Shown: piece by piece, positions 44,151 through 52,609 of the stretch | Layout: each line of letters starts with the position of its first letter | Position numbering within the stretch: position 1 is the first letter of the stretch | Source: an uncultured virus (IMG/VR IMGVR_UViG_3300025034_000006) | Lineage: Duplodnaviria > Heunggongvirae > Uroviricota > Caudoviricetes | Direction: 5' to 3' (one strand) | Virus record (IMG/VR): IMGVR_UViG_3300025034_000006 | DNA: 64,000 nucleotides | The notes under the pieces: generated by a model | Databases searched by the model: none | What the model saw: only the letters and a program-made list of their open reading frames with translations | What the model was told of the DNA's origin: nothing | Program-made: the position numbers and the translations under genes

Positions 44151-44209
44151 ATCTCGACGAGTTGATTTGATTAAGTGTTGACACGAATCGAATCACCTAA
44201 TAGAGAGAC

Positions 44210-44771
44210 GGAATGCCAGCCTGATGGCGATAGTGTGAGGCAACTCACATAAAGGGGGTAAGGCCACTTAACCCCGCCGGTCCCGATCGGTCAATTCAGG
44301 CAAGCGCAGTCAGGTCCGCGAGGACCGCTTCACCGGGATAACCTTGCAAACTTAGCATAGTTGGTAATGCAAACGACTCTTAATCGTGAGATCGGTGGTT
44401 CAAACCCACCAGTCTGCTCCAAACGCAAAGATTGCCACGACTGCATGTGAAAGACGCCTAATGCCATAGAGGCTTGCCTCAATGTGGCCCGACCTGATCT
44501 CGCAAGGTGATGGTTGGTTGGTGGAAGAAGTTTCGTTGGGCCCGCAAGCCCTTAATGGCTGGAGACAGTCAGCGGAATCGAAACTGCCGAATATCATGCA
44601 GTGTCACCGCAAATGCCAGCGGTCCCGTGAGAACCGGGAGAAAAAGGCGGCGTTGGTCTGGAACTGAGCTACCGCAAGGGGCTTGGTGGATAAGTCGGGA
44701 AGGTGACTCGCAAGGTCACTATAATCTGACGAATGACGGATCGTAGCGGGTGTAATCTCAACCTGCTTCCA
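44210..44771 (+). ncRNA. GOLLD-like large structured RNA with embedded tRNA
   Basis: Promoter at 44178; many GNRA-capped hairpins; long-range pairs CTGCATG/CATGCAG and GTTTCG/CGAAAC; internal tRNA; family call from architecture only. Confidence 0.5.
44346..44421 (+). tRNA. tRNA-Lys(CTT), inside the large RNA
   Basis: Cloverleaf, loop CTCTTAA, TTCAAAC, CCA. Confidence 0.85.
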
Positions 44772-44780
44772 TTTTTCGAT

Positions 44781-44953
44781 TTCTATGTTGGCCCAGCAAA
44801 GAAGGTTAGCTACCTTCCCCTCGGTTCCCGCAGGTCAGGTCGATCCCAGCAATTCTCGAATGCAGACGGATCGTCGAAGCATCAGGTCCAGTAATTCGAG
44901 CCGTGGCTTGATCGCATTGGGCGTCGCTGCAAACCCGCTGGGTCATCATAGAA
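44781..44953 (+). ncRNA. Rod-like RNA (~173 nt), 6S-like size and shape
   Basis: Nested pairs TTCTATG/CATAGAA, TGGCCCAGC/GCTGGGTCA, CTCGAAT/ATTCGAG. Confidence 0.45.
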
Positions 44954-44960
44954 AACGATA

Positions 44961-45129
44961 GCCCGGAGTAACCGCCACAACAGATTGGTAGCTTCCATGG
45001 AAAGTTGTCGGGAGTTGGTCAGGGATGTTTAGGTGAAGTCGCCTTCGAAAGCGGCGCGGTGGATCGGAAAGCAGGGTTGATCTCCTGTGGAACGATAGGC
45101 CAGTGGTTCGACTCCACCTCCGGGCTCCA
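44961..45129 (+). ncRNA. tRNA-like RNA with ~130-nt body
   Basis: 8-bp acceptor GCCCGGAG/CTCCGGGC, T arm GTGG-TTCGACT-CCAC, ends TCCA. Confidence 0.6.
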
Positions 45130-45136
45130 TAACGCT

Positions 45137-45276
45137 TCACTCGTAATGAAGCTTCTCAGCGGAATGTCGGCGGTCACGCGACCTAACCGGCGATCCGTGG
45201 GTTTACACTGAACCGGCGGAAGGAAGGGCGTAGTGAACCCGGCCGAGCTTCGAGAGGCCCCATTACGAGTGATCCA
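45137..45276 (+). ncRNA. Structured RNA with 12-bp terminal stem and NCCA end
   Basis: TCACTCGTAATG/CATTACGAGTGA followed by TCCA. Confidence 0.55.
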
Positions 45277-45278
45277 TT

Positions 45279-45402
45279 TGTGATCGGGCCGGCGGCACCA
45301 GATAGGTTTAAGGCGAGTGGACTCCCGTCGAACGGAGACGACAGACCCGGATAAAAACCGTGTATGGGTGTTGCTAGTGCTTTGGCCGCCGGCCTGATCA
45401 CA
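45279..45402 (+). ncRNA. Structured RNA closed by 18-bp stem
   Basis: TGTGATCGGGCCGGCGGC/GCCGCCGGCCTGATCACA. Confidence 0.5.
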
Positions 45403-45408
45403 GATGTT

Positions 45409-45494
45409 TCACTTGCAACAAGGGAGGCGGGCACCGTCGGGAAACCGGGACGGATGATTCGCGAACTTTAGTCCGCTCTCCTTGTTGCGAGTGA
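45409..45494 (+). ncRNA. Long hairpin RNA
   Basis: TCACTTGCAACAAGG...GCGGGC pairs with GTCCGC...CCTTGTTGCGAGTGA. Confidence 0.45.
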
Positions 45495-45682
45495 TGTTCG
45501 AGTTTTTCTCACTTCCCTGTCCGCAGGGGTGACCCGGTAGGTAACCAAGGGTGGTTCGAATATCCTCGCATTTAGTTCCTGTGGGTTCCATGGAGCCCCT
45601 TGAATCCTCAAGCAGGTGACAGAGAGTTAAAGGAGCCGCCCTGCTCCGAAACCAGATAAAATGGGTGAGTGCAATTTTTTAG

Positions 45683-45711
45683 TTGACATTCGAATCGGAT
45701 GTCGTTACACT
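45683..45711 (+). promoter_or_regulatory. Promoter of tRNA operon 1
   Basis: TTGACA-17-TACACT with CGAATCG in spacer. Confidence 0.8.
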
Positions 45712-45763
45712 TCGATCATCAAGACCGGGATGTTCCGGCCAAACAGGATTTCAGAGTTCAACC

Positions 45764-45853
45764 ATGTTCAACGTAGTCGCCATGAATAACCCAGCAGCAC
45801 CGGCCATTATGGTCCCGGTCGCGATGGCGTGCGAACAGATGGTTGGTGGCTAG
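45764..45853 (+). CDS. Leader peptide 1 MFNVVAMNNPAAPAIMVPVAMACEQMVGG
   Basis: Between promoter and terminator; 22 of 28 post-start codons are N/V/A/M/P/I. Confidence 0.8.
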   Translation: MFNVVAMNNPAAPAIMVPVAMACEQMVGG

Positions 45854-45882
45854 GCCACTTCACTCTCCAAGCAGTTATCTCG

Positions 45883-45919
45883 ATCGGGGGCCATGGCAAC
45901 ATGGCCCCCGATTTCGTTT
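45883..45919 (+). terminator. Attenuator terminator 1
   Basis: Perfect 13-bp stem ATCGGGGGCCATG-GCAA-CATGGCCCCCGAT followed by TTCGTTT. Confidence 0.85.
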
Positions 45920-45995
45920 CAGGGTCTAGCTCAGTTGGAAGAGCGTCCGGTTTGGGACCGGAAGGCCGTAGGTTCGAGCCCTACGATCCTGACCA
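45920..45995 (+). tRNA. tRNA-Pro(TGG)
   Basis: Canonical cloverleaf, CCA. Confidence 0.95.
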
Positions 45996-46007
45996 TTTCA
46001 AGAGTAT

Positions 46008-46086
46008 CAGGCGGTAGGGGAGTCTGGCCGTCCCTACCTCCCTCGGACGGAGGGGATCGCAGGTTCGAATCCTGCCCGCCTGACCA
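46008..46086 (+). tRNA. tRNA-Pro(CGG)
   Basis: Cloverleaf, loop CTCGGAC, CCA. Confidence 0.9.
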
Positions 46087-46092
46087 AGTTAT

Positions 46093-46163
46093 AGCAGAGC
46101 CTCAGTGGGGGCGGGGCCTCATAAGCCTTTGACCCGGTGGCGCACATCCACCCTTTGCTACCA
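46093..46163 (+). tRNA. tRNA-Met(CAT), atypical (short D arm, T loop CGCACAT)
   Basis: Acceptor AGCAGAG/CTTTGCT, loop CTCATAA, CCA. Confidence 0.7.
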
Positions 46164-46301
46164 GATAGGTGACCCAGCCACCTCCTCGTCGATCGCCGAG
46201 ATCGTCAGGTGCCCCGCACGATCAGCGGAGCTAGTAAAACCACTGGGACGTTTCGAACCGTCTCGTTGAGACGCGTCTAAGCCGGAGTAATTAACCGGCG
46301 T

Positions 46302-46412
46302 ATGCGGGGCGGTTGTAGAACGAGGAGGACGCCGGTTCGAATCCGGCCACCGGGGCAAGGCTCCGGTGTAGCTCAGGTGGTTAGAGCGCCTTGTTGATTT
46401 CGTCCCCGGCAT
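46302..46412 (+). ncRNA. YrlA-like Y RNA / circularly permuted tRNA-like element
   Basis: Order is T arm, looped acceptor hairpin (CACCGG/CCGGTG), D arm; closed by AACGAGG/CCTTGTT. Confidence 0.7.
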
Positions 46413-46442
46413 CCGTCAAATCGGATGGGACAAAGAGTTTGT

Positions 46443-46518
46443 TGGTGATTAGCTCATTCAGGAGAGCGCTGGTGTCACATACCAGAGGCGGCAGGGGCAG
46501 AGCCTGCATCACCAACCA
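46443..46518 (+). tRNA. tRNA-Val(CAC)
   Basis: Cloverleaf, atypical T loop GGCAGAG, CCA. Confidence 0.85.
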
Positions 46519-46519
46519 T

Positions 46520-46597
46520 CCACGGATAGCTCAGTTGGTAGAGCGGCCGACCGATAATCGGCGTCTTGCGCAGGTTCGAGCCCTGCTCTGTGGACCA
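46520..46597 (+). tRNA. tRNA-Ile(GAT)
   Basis: Cloverleaf, loop CCGATAA, CCA. Confidence 0.9.
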
Positions 46598-46744
46598 GTT
46601 ACCAAACCCTTGACGGGGTGAGGACGCAGGGGTTAGTCTCCCTGTAAGAGCGAGACTAATAGACCGAACATTCGGCCGGCGGATGAGTTGACGACTCGCA
46701 CTCCCGGTTGATCAGTAGGTTGAGGTCTCGCTACCAGTTTATGT

Positions 46745-46828
46745 TCGGTGGTGACAGAGTGGTAATGTGCCCGGCTGTTAACCGGTGTCCCCGAAAGGGC
46801 GGAGGTTCGACCCCTCCCCGCCGAGCCA
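46745..46828 (+). tRNA. tRNA-Asn(GTT) with long variable arm
   Basis: U1-A72, G73, loop CTGTTAA, CCA. Confidence 0.85.
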
Positions 46829-46843
46829 ATTTAGGAGAAGTGA

Positions 46844-47152
46844 GTGGAACGCTACAACATCAGCTACGATCGACCCGGACGAAAACTCCGGGAGACCGAT
46901 CCGGGCCCGTCTGATACCACATGGAAAGGTGTCCGGGAACATTGGTCGAGATCGCATGATGGGCAGTTTCTCTCGGACTATCAGGAAGGTGTCGCACTGG
47001 CCCAAGCGGATTTGACCGCTGATAACCGGGACAATCGCGACGCGCTCTTGGCGGTAGAGGTAGCAGATCGCGGACTTGGCTGGGAAGCCCAGCGCGATGG
47101 TTACCTCGACACGATCGGCGAAGGAAAATACGTCGCTCGTTTGGATTTTTAA
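46844..47152 (+). CDS. Hypothetical protein within tRNA operon
   Basis: AGGAG SD plus GTG. Confidence 0.55.
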   Translation: MERYNISYDRPGRKLRETDPGPSDTTWKGVREHWSRSHDGQFLSDYQEGVALAQADLTADNRDNRDALLAVEVADRGLGWEAQRDGYLDTIGEGKYVARLDF

Positions 47153-47541
47153 TGACAGAGATGAACGTCTTATGTCTGACTTGCCAAACGGAATTGACTG
47201 GTAAACAGACCAAGTTTTGCTCACGAGCATGTCAGAACAAAAACGGTAATGTGAGGAATCAACTCTACGAAAAACAACAAGCCCGAGGCTTGAAAAGAAA
47301 AATGGAGTTGATAAACCTTCGAGGAGGTGGTTGTGAAGAATGTGGTTACAGAGATAATCTAGCTGCTTTGTGTTTTCATCATACAGATGAGACTTCAAAA
47401 GGTTTCGAGCTTACTTTAAGAGAGCTTTCGAATCACAAAGAAGAAACTATAATGAAAGAGTTCGCCAAATGTGTTGTGTTATGTCATAATTGCCATATCG
47501 AACACCACAATCCGAGCCTGAATGGCTGGTATAAGAAATAA
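47152..47541 (+). CDS. HNH endonuclease, probable homing endonuclease in the tRNA cluster
   Basis: CEECGY...LCFHH...LCHNCHIEHH; AT-rich. Confidence 0.85.
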   Translation: MTEMNVLCLTCQTELTGKQTKFCSRACQNKNGNVRNQLYEKQQARGLKRKMELINLRGGGCEECGYRDNLAALCFHHTDETSKGFELTLRELSNHKEETIMKEFAKCVVLCHNCHIEHHNPSLNGWYKK

Positions 47542-47543
47542 TT

Positions 47544-47617
47544 GATCCTGTAGCTTAGTGGTCTAAAGCTCTCTCCTCATAAGAGATGAAACGTAGGTTC
47601 AAATCCTACCGGGATTA
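47544..47617 (+). tRNA. tRNA-Met/Ile2(CAT), no encoded CCA
   Basis: Cloverleaf, loop CTCATAA. Confidence 0.85.
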
Positions 47618-47618
47618 C

Positions 47619-47693
47619 GCTTCGTTAGCTCACCAGTAGAGCGCTGCCGTGACAAGGCAGAGGTAGGAGGGGCAGCACCTTCACGAAGCACCA
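47619..47693 (+). tRNA. tRNA-Val(GAC)
   Basis: Cloverleaf, T loop GGCAGCA, CCA. Confidence 0.85.
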
Positions 47694-47699
47694 CAGTTT

Positions 47700-47777
47700 G
47701 GGGTCGCATGTTCCAAGGGAAGGCGACGGACCCTTGCAAGGTCTGTGAGGTGGGTTCGATTCCCACCGGCTCCACCA
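47700..47777 (+). tRNA. tRNA-Ala(TGC)
   Basis: G3-U70 pair, loop CTTGCAA, CCA. Confidence 0.9.
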
Positions 47778-47839
47778 TACTTGACACGGCCAAAATTTGG
47801 CCTATTGTCGGCCGAAGCAATCATGCTAAAGGAACCGAC

Positions 47840-48016
47840 ATGAACACTTTGTATAGCTGGAAAATCCGCCGGGCTGGTGCTGGTATGACCATCACTCATT
47901 CGTGCGGTAAGATCGTCAACGTCGCTGACATCGAAGCCAAGGGTGACCGGATCATTGCCACCACGGCGACTGGGGCTGAGTTCGAATTGGCGACGCCGCC
48001 CCTCCTCGCAGGGTAA
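47840..48016 (+). CDS. Small hypothetical protein
   Basis: TTGACA at 47781, AAGGA SD, ATG. Confidence 0.55.
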   Translation: MNTLYSWKIRRAGAGMTITHSCGKIVNVADIEAKGDRIIATTATGAEFELATPPLLAG

Positions 48017-48045
48017 ATTAAAAATACGCCAGTGTGATTTTTGTG

Positions 48046-48074
48046 TTGACATAACGAATCGAATCACATATAGT
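48046..48074 (+). promoter_or_regulatory. Promoter of tRNA operon 2
   Basis: TTGACA-17-TATAGT with tandem CGAATC. Confidence 0.85.
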
Positions 48075-48127
48075 TCGGCTTCAACAACGGACACAGTGTC
48101 CACCAAACAGGATTTTGAGTAACTGCT

Positions 48128-48190
48128 ATGACCTACGGATTTACCAAACGAGATCGCCGGAGAGGCGAAGAACGAGGTTTCACCTCGTAA
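48128..48190 (+). CDS. Leader peptide 2 MTYGFTKRDRRRGEERGFTS
   Basis: 14 of 19 post-start codons are K/R/D/G/E/F; 5' UTR shares CCAAACAGGATTT..GAGT with leader 1. Confidence 0.8.
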   Translation: MTYGFTKRDRRRGEERGFTS

Positions 48191-48226
48191 CCCGGTAGTG
48201 CGTAGAGCTATCGGTGTCGTTTTGAC

Positions 48227-48302
48227 GGACCTTTAGCTCAGTAGGTAGAGCAGGCGGCTCTTAACCGCAAGGTGGTAGGTTCAAGCCCTACAAGGTCCAC
48301 CA
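48227..48302 (+). tRNA. tRNA-Lys(CTT)
   Basis: Canonical cloverleaf, CCA; lies upstream of terminator 2. Confidence 0.95.
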
Positions 48303-48320
48303 AAACGACATCGATTTTTG

Positions 48321-48358
48321 AACGCCCTACCGGTCGCCCGGTGGGGCGTTTTTCGTTT
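48321..48358 (+). terminator. Attenuator terminator 2
   Basis: 13-bp stem AACGCCCTACCGG-TCGC-CCGGTGGGGCGTT followed by TTTCGTTT. Confidence 0.85.
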
Positions 48359-48377
48359 CCCGGCTGGTTCTTGGCAT

Positions 48378-48453
48378 GGACCGGTAGCTCAGTAGGCAGA
48401 GCGCGGGACTTTTAATCTTGAGGTCGTGGGTTCGAACCCCACTCGGTCTACCA
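48378..48453 (+). tRNA. tRNA-Lys(TTT)
   Basis: Canonical cloverleaf, CCA. Confidence 0.95.
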
Positions 48454-48479
48454 AGAATATCAATAGTTTACGACTAGAT

Positions 48480-48554
48480 GCGGGTGTAGCTCAGTGGTAG
48501 AGCGCCTGCTTGCCAAGTAGAAGGTCGCGGGTTCGATCCCCGCTACCCGCTCCA
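48480..48554 (+). tRNA. tRNA-Gly(GCC)
   Basis: Canonical cloverleaf, CCA. Confidence 0.95.
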
Positions 48555-48582
48555 GTCGAAGTTGTTAGTGATGAGTGATGAT

Positions 48583-48658
48583 GCAGCCGTAGCTCAGCGG
48601 TAGAGCGGGAGGCTTCCACCCTCCGTCAGCGCGGGTTCGATCCCCGCCGGCCGCTCCA
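48583..48658 (+). tRNA. tRNA-Gly(TCC)
   Basis: Cloverleaf, loop CTTCCAC, CCA. Confidence 0.9.
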
Positions 48659-48670
48659 TCACTTATTATT

Positions 48671-48745
48671 GGCCGTGAAGCCCAACGGTTGGGCAGCGGA
48701 TTGTCTATCCGAAGGTTGCGGGTTCGAATCCCGTCACGGTCGCCA
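48671..48745 (+). tRNA. tRNA-Asp(GTC)
   Basis: Cloverleaf, G73, CCA. Confidence 0.9.
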
Positions 48746-48748
48746 GTT

Positions 48749-48858
48749 TGCAGTATCGTCTAATCCCCGACAACGGGGACAGAGTGTCATGACCTCTGGG
48801 ACTAGGATGGCCGGGCGAAGAACCGGAAGATGTCGGTTCGATCCCGGCTGCTGCGCCA
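48749..48858 (+). ncRNA. tRNA-like RNA with two hairpins inserted in the D loop and an 8-nt anticodon-position loop
   Basis: GCAGTA/TGCTGC acceptor, GTCGG-TTCGATC-CCGGC T arm, CCA. Confidence 0.6.
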
Positions 48859-48916
48859 GTTAACCGGTCAGATATGACCTACAAGCCCGTCTTGTGTGCC
48901 ATATATGACCATATGA

Positions 48917-48990
48917 GGCCCTATCCTCTATGGGTAAGAGTCCACCCTCTCACGGTGAGAAACCGGGTTCGAGCCCCGGTAGGGCCTCCA
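48917..48990 (+). tRNA. tRNA-Glu(CTC)
   Basis: Loop CTCTCAC, CCA; near-duplicate of 49095-49168. Confidence 0.9.
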
Positions 48991-49009
48991 TGAATTAGTT
49001 TACGAGTTC

Positions 49010-49086
49010 GGTCTGGAAGCTCAACTGGAAGAGCAACCGCCTACGAAGCGGAAGGTTGATGGGTTCGACTCCCTCGCAGACCACCA
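49010..49086 (+). tRNA. tRNA-Arg(ACG)
   Basis: Loop CTACGAA, CCA. Confidence 0.9.
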
Positions 49087-49094
49087 ATTTATAT

Positions 49095-49168
49095 GGCCCT
49101 ATCCTCTATGGGTAAGAGTCCGCCCTTTCACGGCGAGAAACCGGGTTCGAGCCCCGGTAGGGCTACCA
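49095..49168 (+). tRNA. tRNA-Glu(TTC)
   Basis: Loop CTTTCAC, CCA. Confidence 0.9.
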
Positions 49169-49179
49169 GATAAGTCAGT

Positions 49180-49255
49180 GCCGCTTTAGCTCAACTGGAG
49201 AGAGCGCGGGCGTCCGAAGCCCAAGACCGGGGTTCGAGTCCCTGAGGCGGCACCA
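49180..49255 (+). tRNA. tRNA-Arg(CCG)
   Basis: Loop GTCCGAA, CCA. Confidence 0.9.
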
Positions 49256-49261
49256 GAGATT

Positions 49262-49336
49262 GCAGGAATAGCTCAGTGGTAGAGCGGTAGGTTGAAAACC
49301 TACGCGTCGGTGGTTCGAACCCATCTTCTTGCACCA
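49262..49336 (+). tRNA. tRNA-Phe(GAA)
   Basis: Canonical cloverleaf, CCA. Confidence 0.95.
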
Positions 49337-49343
49337 GATCACC

Positions 49344-49413
49344 GCCCCCGCCGAGGCGGGCCATGAGCCTTCTAAGCTCTAAGGCGTCGGTTCGACTCCG
49401 GCCGGGGGCTCCA
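49344..49413 (+). tRNA. tRNA-Arg(TCT), short D arm
   Basis: Loop CTTCTAA, T arm, CCA; 70 nt. Confidence 0.75.
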
Positions 49414-49453
49414 CGCCCAGATCAAAAAAAAACACCGTCAGCAAAAATAAGTG

Positions 49454-49482
49454 TTGACTCCTTTAACTTCCTTCCATATACT
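49454..49482 (+). promoter_or_regulatory. Promoter of tRNA operon 3
   Basis: TTGACT-17-TATACT; ATG begins 8 nt downstream, so the mRNA is probably leaderless. Confidence 0.85.
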
Positions 49483-49489
49483 TCGCAGC

Positions 49490-49573
49490 ATGTTCACACA
49501 GACCGCCTTGCAAAGCCTTACGGGCTCCTTACTATGCTGGCATAGCCAGTATAGTTCCCTGTCACCCTTCTAA
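49490..49573 (+). CDS. Leader peptide 3 MFTQTALQSLTGSLLCWHSQYSSLSPF
   Basis: 21 of 26 post-start codons are T/Q/L/S/C/W/H/Y. Confidence 0.8.
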   Translation: MFTQTALQSLTGSLLCWHSQYSSLSPF

Positions 49574-49608
49574 GGGAGCAGCCCTGACGCGCTGCTCTCT
49601 TTCCAAGA

Positions 49609-49705
49609 GGAGCGGTGGCAGAGTCTGGGTTATTGCGGCGGTCTCGAAAACCGTTGGACCATCGAGAGATGTGTTCCGTGGGTTCAAATCCCACTCGCTC
49701 CTCCA
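49609..49705 (+). tRNA. tRNA-Ser(CGA)
   Basis: Long variable arm, loop CTCGAAA, CCA; lies upstream of terminator 3. Confidence 0.9.
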
Positions 49706-49715
49706 GCATTTTCAG

Positions 49716-49754
49716 AGCGTCAGAGCCCACCGGGTTCTGGCGCTATTTTCGTTT
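49716..49754 (+). terminator. Attenuator terminator 3
   Basis: 13-bp stem AGCGTCAGAGCCC-ACC-GGGTTCTGGCGCT followed by ATTTTCGTTT. Confidence 0.8.
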
Positions 49755-49767
49755 CATCACAAGTTTC

Positions 49768-49860
49768 GGGTGATCTTCCCCCTGCCGGCCTGTAACCCCG
49801 GTGCCGTTTCAGAACGTGGGGGACGGATGGCGAGAGGTTCGAGTCCTCGGTCACCCACCA
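49768..49860 (+). tRNA. tRNA-Tyr(GTA), non-canonical (8/4 stems, no D arm)
   Basis: GGGTGATC/GGTCACCC acceptor, loop CTGTAAC, GAGG-TTCGAGT-CCTC, ACCA. Confidence 0.65.
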
Positions 49861-49904
49861 TTTTAGGAGAATACCTGTGAATACAGGAGCTTAATAAGAG
49901 TTAC

Positions 49905-49988
49905 GTGAGCGTGGCTTCATAGGGAATGGTATACCTTGCCGGCTCAGACCCGGTAGCTTTGGGAGTTCGAGTCTCCCCGCTCACACCA
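49905..49988 (+). tRNA. tRNA-Leu(CAG), atypical
   Basis: Loop CTCAGAC; short variable loop; extra bases before D arm. Confidence 0.8.
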
Positions 49989-49996
49989 ACTTAAAT

Positions 49997-50079
49997 CCGC
50001 GATTGGCGAAATTGGTAAACGCAGCGTCTTGAGAGGGCGTGGCCTAGGCTTCCCGGTTCAAGTCCGGGATCGCGGACCA
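49997..50079 (+). tRNA. tRNA-Leu(GAG)
   Basis: Loop TTGAGAG, variable arm, CCA. Confidence 0.9.
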
Positions 50080-50093
50080 ACACAACAAGCTAC

Positions 50094-50178
50094 GGGTGCG
50101 TGGCGACAGGGGAATTGGTAGACTCACCGGACTTAAAATTCGGCCGCTTTGTGGGTTCGAGTCCCACCGCACCCACCA
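50094..50178 (+). tRNA. tRNA-Leu(TAA), atypical
   Basis: Loop CTTAAAA; short variable loop; extra bases before D arm. Confidence 0.8.
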
Positions 50179-50193
50179 GATATGAAGTTCAAT

Positions 50194-50268
50194 GCCGGTT
50201 TAGCTCAGTGGTAGCAGCAGCGCCTTTGTAACGCGAAGACGAGGGTTCGATTCCCTCATCCGGCTCCA
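50194..50268 (+). tRNA. tRNA-Thr(TGT)
   Basis: Loop TTTGTAA, CCA. Confidence 0.85.
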
Positions 50269-50290
50269 GATAATGTTCCACGGTTTAGGT

Positions 50291-50364
50291 GTGGCCGAGG
50301 CAGAGATGGATGATGCGCCGGCTTGTGATGCCGGAGATGGCGGGTTCGAATCCCGCCGGTCACC
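50291..50364 (+). tRNA. tRNA-His(GTG)
   Basis: Loop TTGTGAT, C73, no encoded CCA. Confidence 0.85.
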
Positions 50365-50382
50365 CCTAAGCCGTGGAACAAT

Positions 50383-50457
50383 TGCCCGATCGACTAATTG
50401 GCAAGTCGCTCGACTCTGAATCCTGAAATGTAGGTTCGACCCCTGCTCGGGCATCCA
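50383..50457 (+). tRNA. tRNA-Gln(CTG)
   Basis: U1-A72, loop CTCTGAA, CCA. Confidence 0.85.
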
Positions 50458-50472
50458 ATTATGGAGTTAGTT

Positions 50473-50721
50473 ATGGAAGTTCTTGACGAACAAACTGACC
50501 AACCTGATGCCCCTTCGGCTAATGGTAAGTCAGCGCCCTTTGAAGGCGAAGACGTTGGTTCGATCCCAACAGGGGCATCCAAAAATTTAGCTCCGATCCA
50601 TCGCTGCACTGTGCGGCAGATCGGGGAGTTCACGTTTGTTCTGGTTGAACCTGATGGTTCCCTGTTCAACGTGGTCGAAGAGATCGATCGTCAGTTTATG
50701 GCTGGAGGTTGTAACAAGTAA
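50473..50721 (+). CDS. Hypothetical protein whose frame spans tRNA-Gln(TTG)
   Basis: GGAG SD plus ATG; frame is open through the tRNA. Confidence 0.45.
   Translation: MEVLDEQTDQPDAPSANGKSAPFEGEDVGSIPTGASKNLAPIHRCTVRQIGEFTFVLVEPDGSLFNVVEEIDRQFMAGGCNK
50508..50581 (+). tRNA. tRNA-Gln(TTG)
   Basis: U1-A72, loop CTTTGAA, CCA. Confidence 0.9.
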
Positions 50722-50722
50722 C

Positions 50723-50798
50723 GCCGTTTGAGCAAGCTGGGACTGCACTCCCTTGGTAGGGGAGAGAAGAGTCGGTTCGATTCCGACAAACGGCTCCA
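50723..50798 (+). tRNA. tRNA-Thr(GGT)
   Basis: Loop TTGGTAG, CCA. Confidence 0.85.
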
Positions 50799-50804
50799 AT
50801 TAGA

Positions 50805-50892
50805 GGAGGGTGCCGAGGTCGGCTCCTCAACTGGCTTGCTAAGCCGGGGTGACCCTTCGGGGTCAGGGGTTCGATGCCTCCACCTTCCTCCA
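50805..50892 (+). tRNA. tRNA-Ser(GCT), 8/4 type
   Basis: 8-bp acceptor, 4-bp T stem, long variable arm, CCA. Confidence 0.8.
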
Positions 50893-50900
50893 CAACATAT

Positions 50901-50988
50901 GGAAAGCGCGTGGGTCGGCTCCCTAATCAGCTTGGAACGCTGTCGTGACCCTTCGGGGTCAGGGGTTCGATGCCCCCGCTTTCCTCCA
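50901..50988 (+). tRNA. tRNA-Ser(GGA), 8/4 type
   Basis: 8-bp acceptor, 4-bp T stem, same variable arm as the previous tRNA. Confidence 0.8.
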
Positions 50989-51026
50989 CATACGTTGAAG
51001 CATATATCCACCCGATAATATATGCT

Positions 51027-51069
51027 TTGACATATCATGTGAAATCGCTTAGTTCACATGATATGTCAA
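51027..51069. repeat. Perfect 17-bp inverted repeat starting with TTGACA on both strands
   Basis: TTGACATATCATGTGAA-9nt-TTCACATGATATGTCAA. Confidence 0.9.
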
Positions 51070-51073
51070 TCAA

Positions 51074-51159
51074 GCCGCCTTGGCCGAGTCTGGTAAGGCA
51101 CCCGGTTGCAACCCGGAGGTTCCGAAAGGACGCAGGTTCAAATCCTGTGGGCGGCTCCA
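51074..51159 (+). tRNA. tRNA-Cys(GCA) with long variable arm
   Basis: Loop TTGCAAC, U73, CCA. Confidence 0.85.
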
Positions 51160-51173
51160 GATTATGAGGTGAA

Positions 51174-51509
51174 ATGAACGTAGACGATTTTTATGCTGAG
51201 TGCGCTGTGATCCTTGGAGTTCCCCACGAGGGCGAAGAGTTCACCCACTACAAGCGGACCCGCTGGAACAACCGGCGGCCCGGCCGAGGACGTTTTCCCG
51301 GTGCTGGTTTGATCCGCGTGTTCGGCGATGTCGTCCACATCAATATCCGTTTCCCAGTGGTCGCCCGGCAGACGATCACCGGGCTCCCCGAAGCGTTAGA
51401 TTATCTTCGCGGTCGGGTTGGCACTATGGGAGTGTCGTCTAATGGTAAGACAGCGGATTCCAAACCCGCTGACGTGGGTTCGATTCCTACCTCTCCCGCC
51501 ACACCGTAA
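51174..51509 (+). CDS. Hypothetical protein whose 3' end spans tRNA-Trp
   Basis: GAGGTG SD plus ATG; RTRWNNRRPG.GRFPG.G segment. Confidence 0.65.
   Translation: MNVDDFYAECAVILGVPHEGEEFTHYKRTRWNNRRPGRGRFPGAGLIRVFGDVVHINIRFPVVARQTITGLPEALDYLRGRVGTMGVSSNGKTADSKPADVGSIPTSPATP
51428..51501 (+). tRNA. tRNA-Trp(CCA)
   Basis: Loop TTCCAAA, G73, CCA. Confidence 0.9.
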
Positions 51510-52156: not shown

Positions 52157-52216
52157 TTTTCGACGCGCTCTCAATTTTCAGTTGACAGTGATGTGCGAAT
52201 CGCTTATTCTTCTCCT

Positions 52217-52608
52217 CGTCAAGTGCTTCGGCATGAAGACTACGGTCGTAGAAGGCCATCTAAGTCAAGCGGAGACCCGAGGGCAGAACTCGGCACCTCC
52301 ACCAAAGACCCCTGCGGCCGCCTGAAACGCGGTCAGGGTGACGATCCGCCTAGGCTCTGGACGACGGTCCTTTGTAAGGCAGCGGGGTTCTTTGATGGGG
52401 GTGAATTTAGGATCGATCCGTAAGGCCGATGTGGAGAAGCGCCCCGTTTAGATACCGCCCGTATGCGGATCAAATTCATCAACTGTCAACGACAATGATG
52501 TGGTCGTCGCCAGCGAAGAGATTCGTCTCGCCGCGTAAGCGACAAAATCCCTAGGGCCTCACACCTCTAGGTGGCGCGTGGTCCCGAGCGTAGCAACAGT
52601 TTCGGGAC
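52217..52608 (+). ncRNA. ssrA: Two-piece circularly permuted tmRNA
   Basis: Acceptor piece ends CACCTCC-ACCA at 52304; spacer hairpin; coding piece starts GGGGGTG at 52397 (G3-U70); tag frame 52485-52538 VNDNDVVVASEEIRLAA*. Confidence 0.9.
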
Positions 52609-52609
52609 A

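Follow-up and report, generated by a model that had tools for sequence, protein, structure and literature searches.

Leader-peptide attenuators that sense more than one amino acid control the enterobacterial ilvGMEDA, ilvBN and thr operons, and leader-peptide attenuation also acts at trp, his, leu and pheA. In the pheST (pheM) attenuator, it is a tRNA synthetase operon that is controlled through Phe codons. T-box riboswitches, too, are leader RNAs that tune translation-related genes to tRNA status through a choice between terminator and antiterminator, but they bind the uncharged tRNA directly and need no ORF. Here we describe a locus that resembles each of these systems in part and that lies in DNA of an uncultured virus of the Caudoviricetes (IMG/VR record IMGVR_UViG_3300025034_000006); the whole stretch analysed, 64,000 nucleotides, is referred to as the window. 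We think it likely that its unit 1 is a ribosome-mediated (leader-peptide) transcription attenuator that regulates tRNA genes and in which slow decoding leads to read-through. As in the leaders of the ilv and thr type, a short ORF close to the promoter has many codons for several amino acids and is accompanied by a terminator and an antiterminator that overlap and by a candidate fold of the ORF upon itself; the position of the ribosome makes the choice between the folds in those leaders and would do so here. Unlike in those leaders, the regulated genes are tRNAs rather than biosynthetic enzymes, they are located in a phage, and the proposed sensor samples six amino acids (eight in the sister unit 3), all of them present in every leader. 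The likeness to pheST is that leader-peptide attenuation would act on the translation machinery and not on a biosynthetic pathway, yet pheST controls a protein gene and senses one amino acid, whereas the phage product is the very class of molecule that is sensed as short. In contrast to a T-box, the proposed sensor here is an ORF, and no T-box or Rfam leader family is found among the 27 gathering-score matches in the window or among the 51 matches at E up to 1 between 43800 and 53000. Since the genes downstream of unit 1 are tRNAs and neither biosynthetic enzymes nor aminoacyl-tRNA synthetases, we regard the locus as a variant of leader-peptide attenuation rather than as a member of a described leader family. 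A search of the full-text literature, with most subscription journals outside its scope, returned no published case of leader-peptide attenuation of phage tRNA genes. The accessible part of the paper on vB_EliS-L02, a cultured relative, mentions tRNA 26 times and has no instance of leader, attenuat- or terminator.

Among the proteins encoded by the window, which is phage DNA, are a family A DNA polymerase, an SNF2-type helicase, a phage-integrase-family protein, a primase-like protein and an RtcB tRNA ligase. ARAGORN and Rfam together place at least 29 tRNA genes on the plus strand, from 44346 to 51501, and the three units considered below all lie on this strand. That the phage brings its own RtcB tRNA ligase and its own tmRNA was counted as context in favour of an attenuator of tRNA supply. 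The tmRNA is a permuted one (two-piece, alpha-type; 52178-52609) and has its own promoter-like site at 52182. A GOLLD-like RNA occupies 44318-44764 with an Rfam score of 122.1 bits (E 1.6e-32), which is below the gathering score of 150; it encloses a tRNA-Lys(CUU) (44346-44421), has a promoter-like site near 44178 and is followed, up to unit 1, by about 900 nt of non-coding and apparently structured RNA. Exact contigs at 44368-44739, in the GOLLD-like region, occur in an aquifer RNA run. In unit 1, a 173-nt contig from a public run spans 45789-45961; of the four runs, all available solely as contigs, three are probably DNA.

Relatives were gathered among cultured phages and IMG/VR contigs by means of the leader region, the neighbouring recombinase and conserved leader stretches. 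The leader region is 76% identical in Erythrobacter phage XM05 and 73% identical in vB_EliS-L02, both of which are cultured, and the tRNA array is built from the same three blocks in all these relatives. Eight distinct unit-1 leaders were compared, those of the window, L006, L007, L008, L002, XM05, L010 and L031. Since all of them share one partition of the amino acids, their agreement reflects shared ancestry in part and does not amount to independent trials. Sphingobium phage Lacusarx has the tRNA block of unit 1 without the unit-1 leader, so the leader is dispensable. No codon-matched ORF was found upstream of the tRNAs of Phaeobacter phage MD18 and Rhodobacter phage RcXuper, and phiCbK has no tRNA array beside its homologous recombinase.

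The unit-1 leader ORF (45764..45853) runs from an ATG at 45764 to a TAG stop at 45851-45853 and comprises 29 codons plus the stop. Its codons 3-22 (45770-45829) specify only Asn, Val, Ala, Met, Pro and Ile, as the preliminary description of this locus had stated, and translation of the ORF bears out the run of 20. In the background of the window (13,463 residues in the 36 ORFs of at least 200 aa), these six residues make up a fraction of 0.327, and the next longest in-set run among the 447 ATG ORFs of 15-60 codons on both strands is 8 residues, against 20 here. The match in composition is thus real and far beyond chance. It extends to the relatives: 168 of the 228 residues that follow Met1 in the eight unit-1 leaders are in the set, against the same background of 0.327, the longest in-set runs are 13-20 residues long and each of the eight peptides contains all six amino acids. 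In L010 the run is again 20 residues long, with its residues in another order, and from this it follows that the constraint is on which amino acids are present and not on the peptide sequence. Beyond codon 22, the tail of the peptide varies freely among the relatives. In all eight phages the reading frame stays open over 28-31 codons; stops interrupt one of the other two frames in eight of eight and the other in seven of eight. The ATG is conserved; an AGGA motif lies 15 nt before it, and a short GAG alone is found at the usual spacing. The ORF is presumably translated.

The amino acids served by the tRNA block that follows (45920..47777; ARAGORN and Rfam) are exactly the six of the leader run. 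ARAGORN calls Pro(UGG) (45920-45995), Pro(CGG) (46008-46086) and Met(CAU) (47544-47618) as well as Ile(GAU), Asn(GUU) and Ala(UGC) within the block, and Rfam adds two Val tRNAs above threshold, Val(CAC) (46443-46515; 40.4 bits) and Val(GAC) (47619-47690; 43.3 bits). Both Val tRNAs have T-loops off the usual consensus and are missed by ARAGORN even at low thresholds. The leader contains one CCA and two CCG codons, and the earlier claim that these match the pair of tRNA-Pro genes directly after the terminator holds. Two caveats made at the same time, that GTA lacks a Val(UAC) tRNA and that Val(CAC) lacks a GTG codon in the leader, are likewise correct; what had been overlooked is the second Val tRNA, whose GAC anticodon reads GTC, present three times in codons 3-22, and GTT, found at codon 27. 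On our reading of the wobble rules, the block offers a cognate anticodon for 17 of the 20 codons of the run, the exceptions being GTA and two GCC codons.

Block 1 holds more than tRNA genes. An element like a CAU anticodon arm (near 46118, in the region 46087-46300) comes right after Pro(CGG) in every phage. ARAGORN calls it as tRNA-Met in L007 and, at a lowered threshold, in L002 and Lacusarx, and does not call it in the window, where the region is longer. A weak YrlA-like (Y RNA-like) RNA lies inside the block at 46306-46409 (37.5 bits; gathering score 69), and the stretch 46220-46355 is matched by an exact RNA contig. At 46844-47541 the block is interrupted by two ORFs, 102 and 129 aa long, neither of which has a Pfam match. 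The second, which is visibly more AT-rich than its surroundings and has many Cys and His residues, may be a mobile insertion of the endonuclease type.

Upstream of the ORF, the unit-1 promoter (45683..45711) combines a -35 hexamer identical to the sigma-70 consensus with a 17-nt spacer and a -10-like hexamer and scores 10/12 in the promoter scan. The -35 hexamer and the 17-nt spacing are the same at the homologous place in all seven phages examined. Transcription would start about 46 nt before the ORF. A hairpin in the 5' UTR (45724..45739) is part of the MFE fold of six of seven phage leaders and absent from the window's own MFE fold, and the sequence of its stem varies between phages. It is followed by the conserved AGGA-containing motif (45745-45751), and the same layout of hairpin plus AGGA motif is found upstream of the unit-2 ORF. 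Within the ORF, region 1 (45767..45784; codons 2-7) contains the first sensor codons and can pair with codons 20-25 as an anti-antiterminator. This fold has 19 pairs in the seven-phage consensus, two of them with changes on both sides. A second hairpin inside the ORF (45799..45819; codons 12-19) is nucleotide-invariant and contributes the 5' half of region 2. Its pairing is seen in the consensus folds, with one A-U to G-C covariation, and the hairpin is kept even in L010 despite the differing peptide. It may act as a pause hairpin. A further, small hairpin that contains the stop codon (45845..45859), seen in MFE folds and in the alignment, is present in every relative with unrelated sequences.

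The ORF is followed by a hairpin that has the form of an intrinsic terminator (45882..45919), with a GC-rich 14-bp stem (45882-45895/45900-45913), a 4-nt loop and a U-rich tail that ends one base before tRNA-Pro. Its predicted dG is -29.4 in the window and ranges from -20.4 to -29.4 in all eight phages, in each of which a U-rich tail is present and the stem sequences differ. A simple consensus terminator scan did not list it, and we infer that it terminates transcription. The competing antiterminator would be formed by region 2 (45807..45833; codons 15-24) as the 5' strand and region 3 (45870..45895) as the 3' strand, the latter combining the terminator's 5' arm with the 12 nt upstream of it. 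The preliminary description had proposed a shorter pairing, between 45809-45821 and the 5' arm. This place is indeed the best upstream partner of the arm (dG -19.3), but the short form is reached by 14 of 300 shuffles and the true duplex is about twice as long: with the 12 nt added on the 3' strand it spans 24-27 nt and has an RNAduplex dG of -32.7, which none of 300 shuffles reaches in the window. In six of the seven phages first examined, the antiterminator has a dG of -31.0 to -36.5, again reached by none of 300 shuffles, and in L031 it has a dG of -30.8, reached by two of 300. XM05 and L031 form it from different sequences on both strands. The partner of the arm is codons 15-24 in seven of eight phages; in L010, no antiterminator better than shuffles was found (36 of 300 reach it). 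As for the self-folds of the ORF that had been listed earlier, the pairing of the CGCCAT type recurs in the seven-phage consensus fold, while the other two are particular to the window.

How the position of the ribosome would decide between these structures depends on whether the RNA is considered at equilibrium or as it emerges. At equilibrium, with a ribosome footprint placed at each codon, the terminator of the window keeps a probability of 0.96-0.98 at every A-site position, and a thermodynamic switch is therefore rejected. This type of folding was usable for five of seven phages (L007 and L010 were left out), and in XM05 an A site at codons 8-13 lowers the probability of the terminator from 0.69 to 0.01-0.09. 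Across all eight phages the terminator is favoured at equilibrium by 12.5-22.9 kcal/mol. Since the terminator wins at equilibrium, the switch of unit 1 can only be kinetic, in the manner of classical attenuators. While the transcript of the window is nascent and still lacks the 3' arm, an A site at codons 1-13 lets codons 15-24 pair with 12-13 of the 14 bases of the 5' arm. Only four arm bases pair with the A site at codons 15-17, and 7-10, partly with other partners, at codons 18-26. The pairing of the arm in the nascent transcript is worth 5.2-12.1 kcal/mol in the eight phages, and in the absence of a ribosome the antiterminator is more stable there than the fold between codons 2-7 and 20-25. 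The preliminary description would have been refuted by an antiterminator unable to compete with the terminator wherever on the ORF a ribosome stalls; the antiterminator does compete in the nascent transcript, with the A site at codons 1-13, and not at equilibrium. The same model indicates that in the window a stall at codons 15-19 covers the antiterminator strand, so only codons 3-13, approximately, can be inducing sensor codons, and a stall at the in-set codons 15-22, which lie inside that strand, should favour termination. The only Ile codon of the window leader, codon 15, is within this termination-favouring stretch, while L002, L007 and L010 have earlier Ile codons. The classical 1:2 / 2:3 / 3:4 switching that had been suggested for this locus is supported, with promoter, open frame, terminator and antiterminator present and conserved alongside a putative fold of the 1:2 type, and with a switch that would be kinetic.

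Taken in sequence, the proposed events would be as follows. A transcript begun at the host-type promoter, some 46 nt ahead of the 29-codon ORF, would be read by ribosomes that, when moving freely, cover codons 15-24 or allow the ORF to refold on itself behind them. The terminator could then form, and transcription would stop one base before tRNA-Pro. A ribosome that stalls at an early Asn, Val, Ala, Met or Pro codon (around codons 3-13) would instead leave codons 15-24 bare, and these could pair with the emerging 5' arm of the terminator, letting the polymerase continue into the tRNAs for Pro, Val, Ile, Asn, Met and Ala. Such an arrangement would constitute a negative feedback, as the set of tRNAs would be made when the decoding of just these amino acids is slow, and the two sister units may act likewise for the other two tRNA blocks.

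Sister unit 2 (48046..48359) consists of a promoter, a leader ORF of 20 codons (48128-48190), a 36-nt segment, tRNA-Lys(CUU) (48227-48302), a trailer and a terminator (48320-48351), and sister unit 3 (49454..49753) of a promoter, a leader ORF of 27 codons (49490-49573), a hairpin with an invariant loop that abuts the stop of the ORF, tRNA-Ser(CGA) (49609-49705) and a terminator (49716-49744). Their promoters, at 48046 and 49454, score 10-11/12. In both units the terminator comes after the first tRNA of the block, a geometry unlike that of unit 1, and strong terminators are found there in nine of nine phages for unit 2 and in eight of eight for unit 3. Of the 19 residues that follow Met1 in the unit-2 leader of the window, 14 are Lys, Gly, Asp, Glu, Arg or Phe, and in the unit-3 leader 21 of 26 are Ser, Tyr, Leu, Thr, His, Gln, Cys or Trp. 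When the phages are taken together, 119 of 149 residues of unit-2 leaders and 196 of 226 residues of unit-3 leaders are in their own sets. The unit-3 leader of the window is also spread over synonymous codons, with five Leu, four Ser and three Thr codons. Each of these two sets corresponds to the tRNAs behind its ORF, with the exception of Tyr in the window: neither ARAGORN nor Rfam calls a tRNA-Tyr in its third block. A stretch like a GUA anticodon arm lies at 49769-49860, where L002 and L007 have tRNA-Tyr. Each of the three window leaders ranks first of the 447 small ORFs for its own amino-acid set, none of the 25 distinct leader peptides of the three units lacks a member of its own set, and the three sets together partition the 20 amino acids.

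The 36-nt segment of unit 2 starts one base after the stop codon and has its partners in the trailer and in the terminator's 5' arm, with which it forms the antiterminator. This helix has a dG of -32.2 to -41.0, reached by none of 300 shuffles in any of nine phages. In the nine-phage alignment, 86.7% of 233 cells pair, versus 35-51% when the partners are slid, and 12 of the 26 pairs show changes on both sides, a score that none of 500 shuffles reaches. An earlier alignment of seven sequences had shown no covariation for the 11 distal pairs; with L031 and L032 added, two of the distal pairs have double changes, a value that 13 of 500 shuffles equal. The strand that captures the terminator begins 0-2 nt after the stop codon in all nine phages, and since it starts so close to the stop, only ribosomes that complete the ORF can mask it. 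A stall farther upstream leaves the strand free, so in unit 2 a stall would mean read-through, in agreement with unit 1. The attenuator of unit 2 (48191-48351) has tRNA-Lys(CUU) inside it, with the 5' leader and the 3' trailer of this tRNA forming the covarying helix of about 26 bp that includes the 5' arm of the terminator. The tRNA precursor would thereby be part of the switch, and cleavage by RNase P would sever its two strands.

Unit 3 appears to be built along similar lines with a weaker pairing. In five of eight phages, the loop of the hairpin is the best partner of the terminator's 5' arm. This candidate antiterminator is weak, being reached by 2-97 of 300 shuffles; in a second analysis (L021 left out, its terminator mis-detected) 6-228 of 300 shuffles reach it. 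The ATG lies 7 nt after the -10 hexamer in all eight phages, and on account of this short distance the unit-3 mRNA is probably leaderless. The hairpins that abut the stop codons in units 2 and 3 were also considered as terminators in their own right. This was rejected, as 36-191 of 200 shuffles match the best upstream partner in all 16 cases, and for unit 3 four of eight of these hairpins have no U tract.

It is conceivable that the switch has the opposite sign, such that a stalled or lagging ribosome lets the terminator form and tRNA synthesis stops on amino-acid shortage, as a cis-acting analogue of the stringent control of stable RNA. In the model, the antiterminator strand is indeed covered when a ribosome stalls with its A site at codons 15-19. 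This strand takes in eight of the 20 in-set codons (15-22), among them the only Ile codon, and the sensor cannot distinguish a missing tRNA from a missing amino acid. However, the first 11 in-set codons are upstream of the strand, and stalls there leave it free, with 12-13 of the 14 arm bases paired. Moreover, the sequestering strand of unit 2 comes right after the stop and could be masked only by ribosomes that finish the ORF, which again makes a stall a cause of read-through. We therefore consider the opposite sign unlikely, and we infer for unit 1 that a stall gives read-through rather than the reverse.

Alternatively, the ORF might not be translated at all, and the locus might be a structured 5' leader that serves the processing or the stability of the tRNA precursor. 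The lack of a clear Shine-Dalgarno sequence before the unit-1 ATG would fit such an RNA-only element, as would the presence of several conserved hairpins and the invariance of 45799-45819, which includes synonymous sites and thus points to a constraint on the RNA. Yet the frame is open in all eight phages, with changes in length that stay in frame (28-31 codons), L010 keeps a 20-residue in-set run in another order, and there are three leaders, each of which matches its own tRNA block, all of which makes an untranslated element quite improbable. The ORF might also encode a small hydrophobic peptide that acts in trans, its position before the tRNAs being incidental. Small membrane peptides often contain Ala, Val, Ile, Met and Pro, and leader peptides with functions in trans have been published (PMC7298713). 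Against this stand the absence of Leu from the peptide, the occurrence of Phe or Gly only outside the run, the three Asn residues inside it and the unconserved tail after codon 22. The sister peptides, in addition, are highly charged or polar and follow the same rule of composition, and a peptide acting in trans thus strikes us as very improbable.

Extending leader-peptide attenuation to the three units together leads to a more speculative scenario, towards which we lean slightly less than away from it. Perhaps the tRNAs for the 20 amino acids are divided over three operons that form a three-channel homeostat of tRNA supply, each gated by a test ORF that samples all of its amino acids. Any loss of host tRNA, be it by turnover, by shut-off or by an anticodon-nuclease defence, would then call forth just that replacement set, and in two of the channels the antiterminator would be a leader-trailer helix around the operon's first tRNA that abuts the stop codon. 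If this scenario holds, it would represent an attenuator architecture not previously described, in which the tRNA precursor is itself part of the switch. The attenuation of tRNA genes proposed here is open to direct testing, since the relatives vB_EliS-L02 and XM05 are cultured with Erythrobacter hosts, and codon-matched leaders of this kind could find use as small natural sensors of how much tRNA is available.

The reason for which phages carry tRNA genes is an open question, as is the way in which these genes are controlled. In the present phage they seem to be coupled to a direct read-out of how fast decoding proceeds for exactly those amino acids that they serve. If so, leader-peptide attenuation would extend from the supply of amino acids to the supply of tRNAs, and it would provide these phages with an on-demand answer to the depletion or cleavage of host tRNAs.
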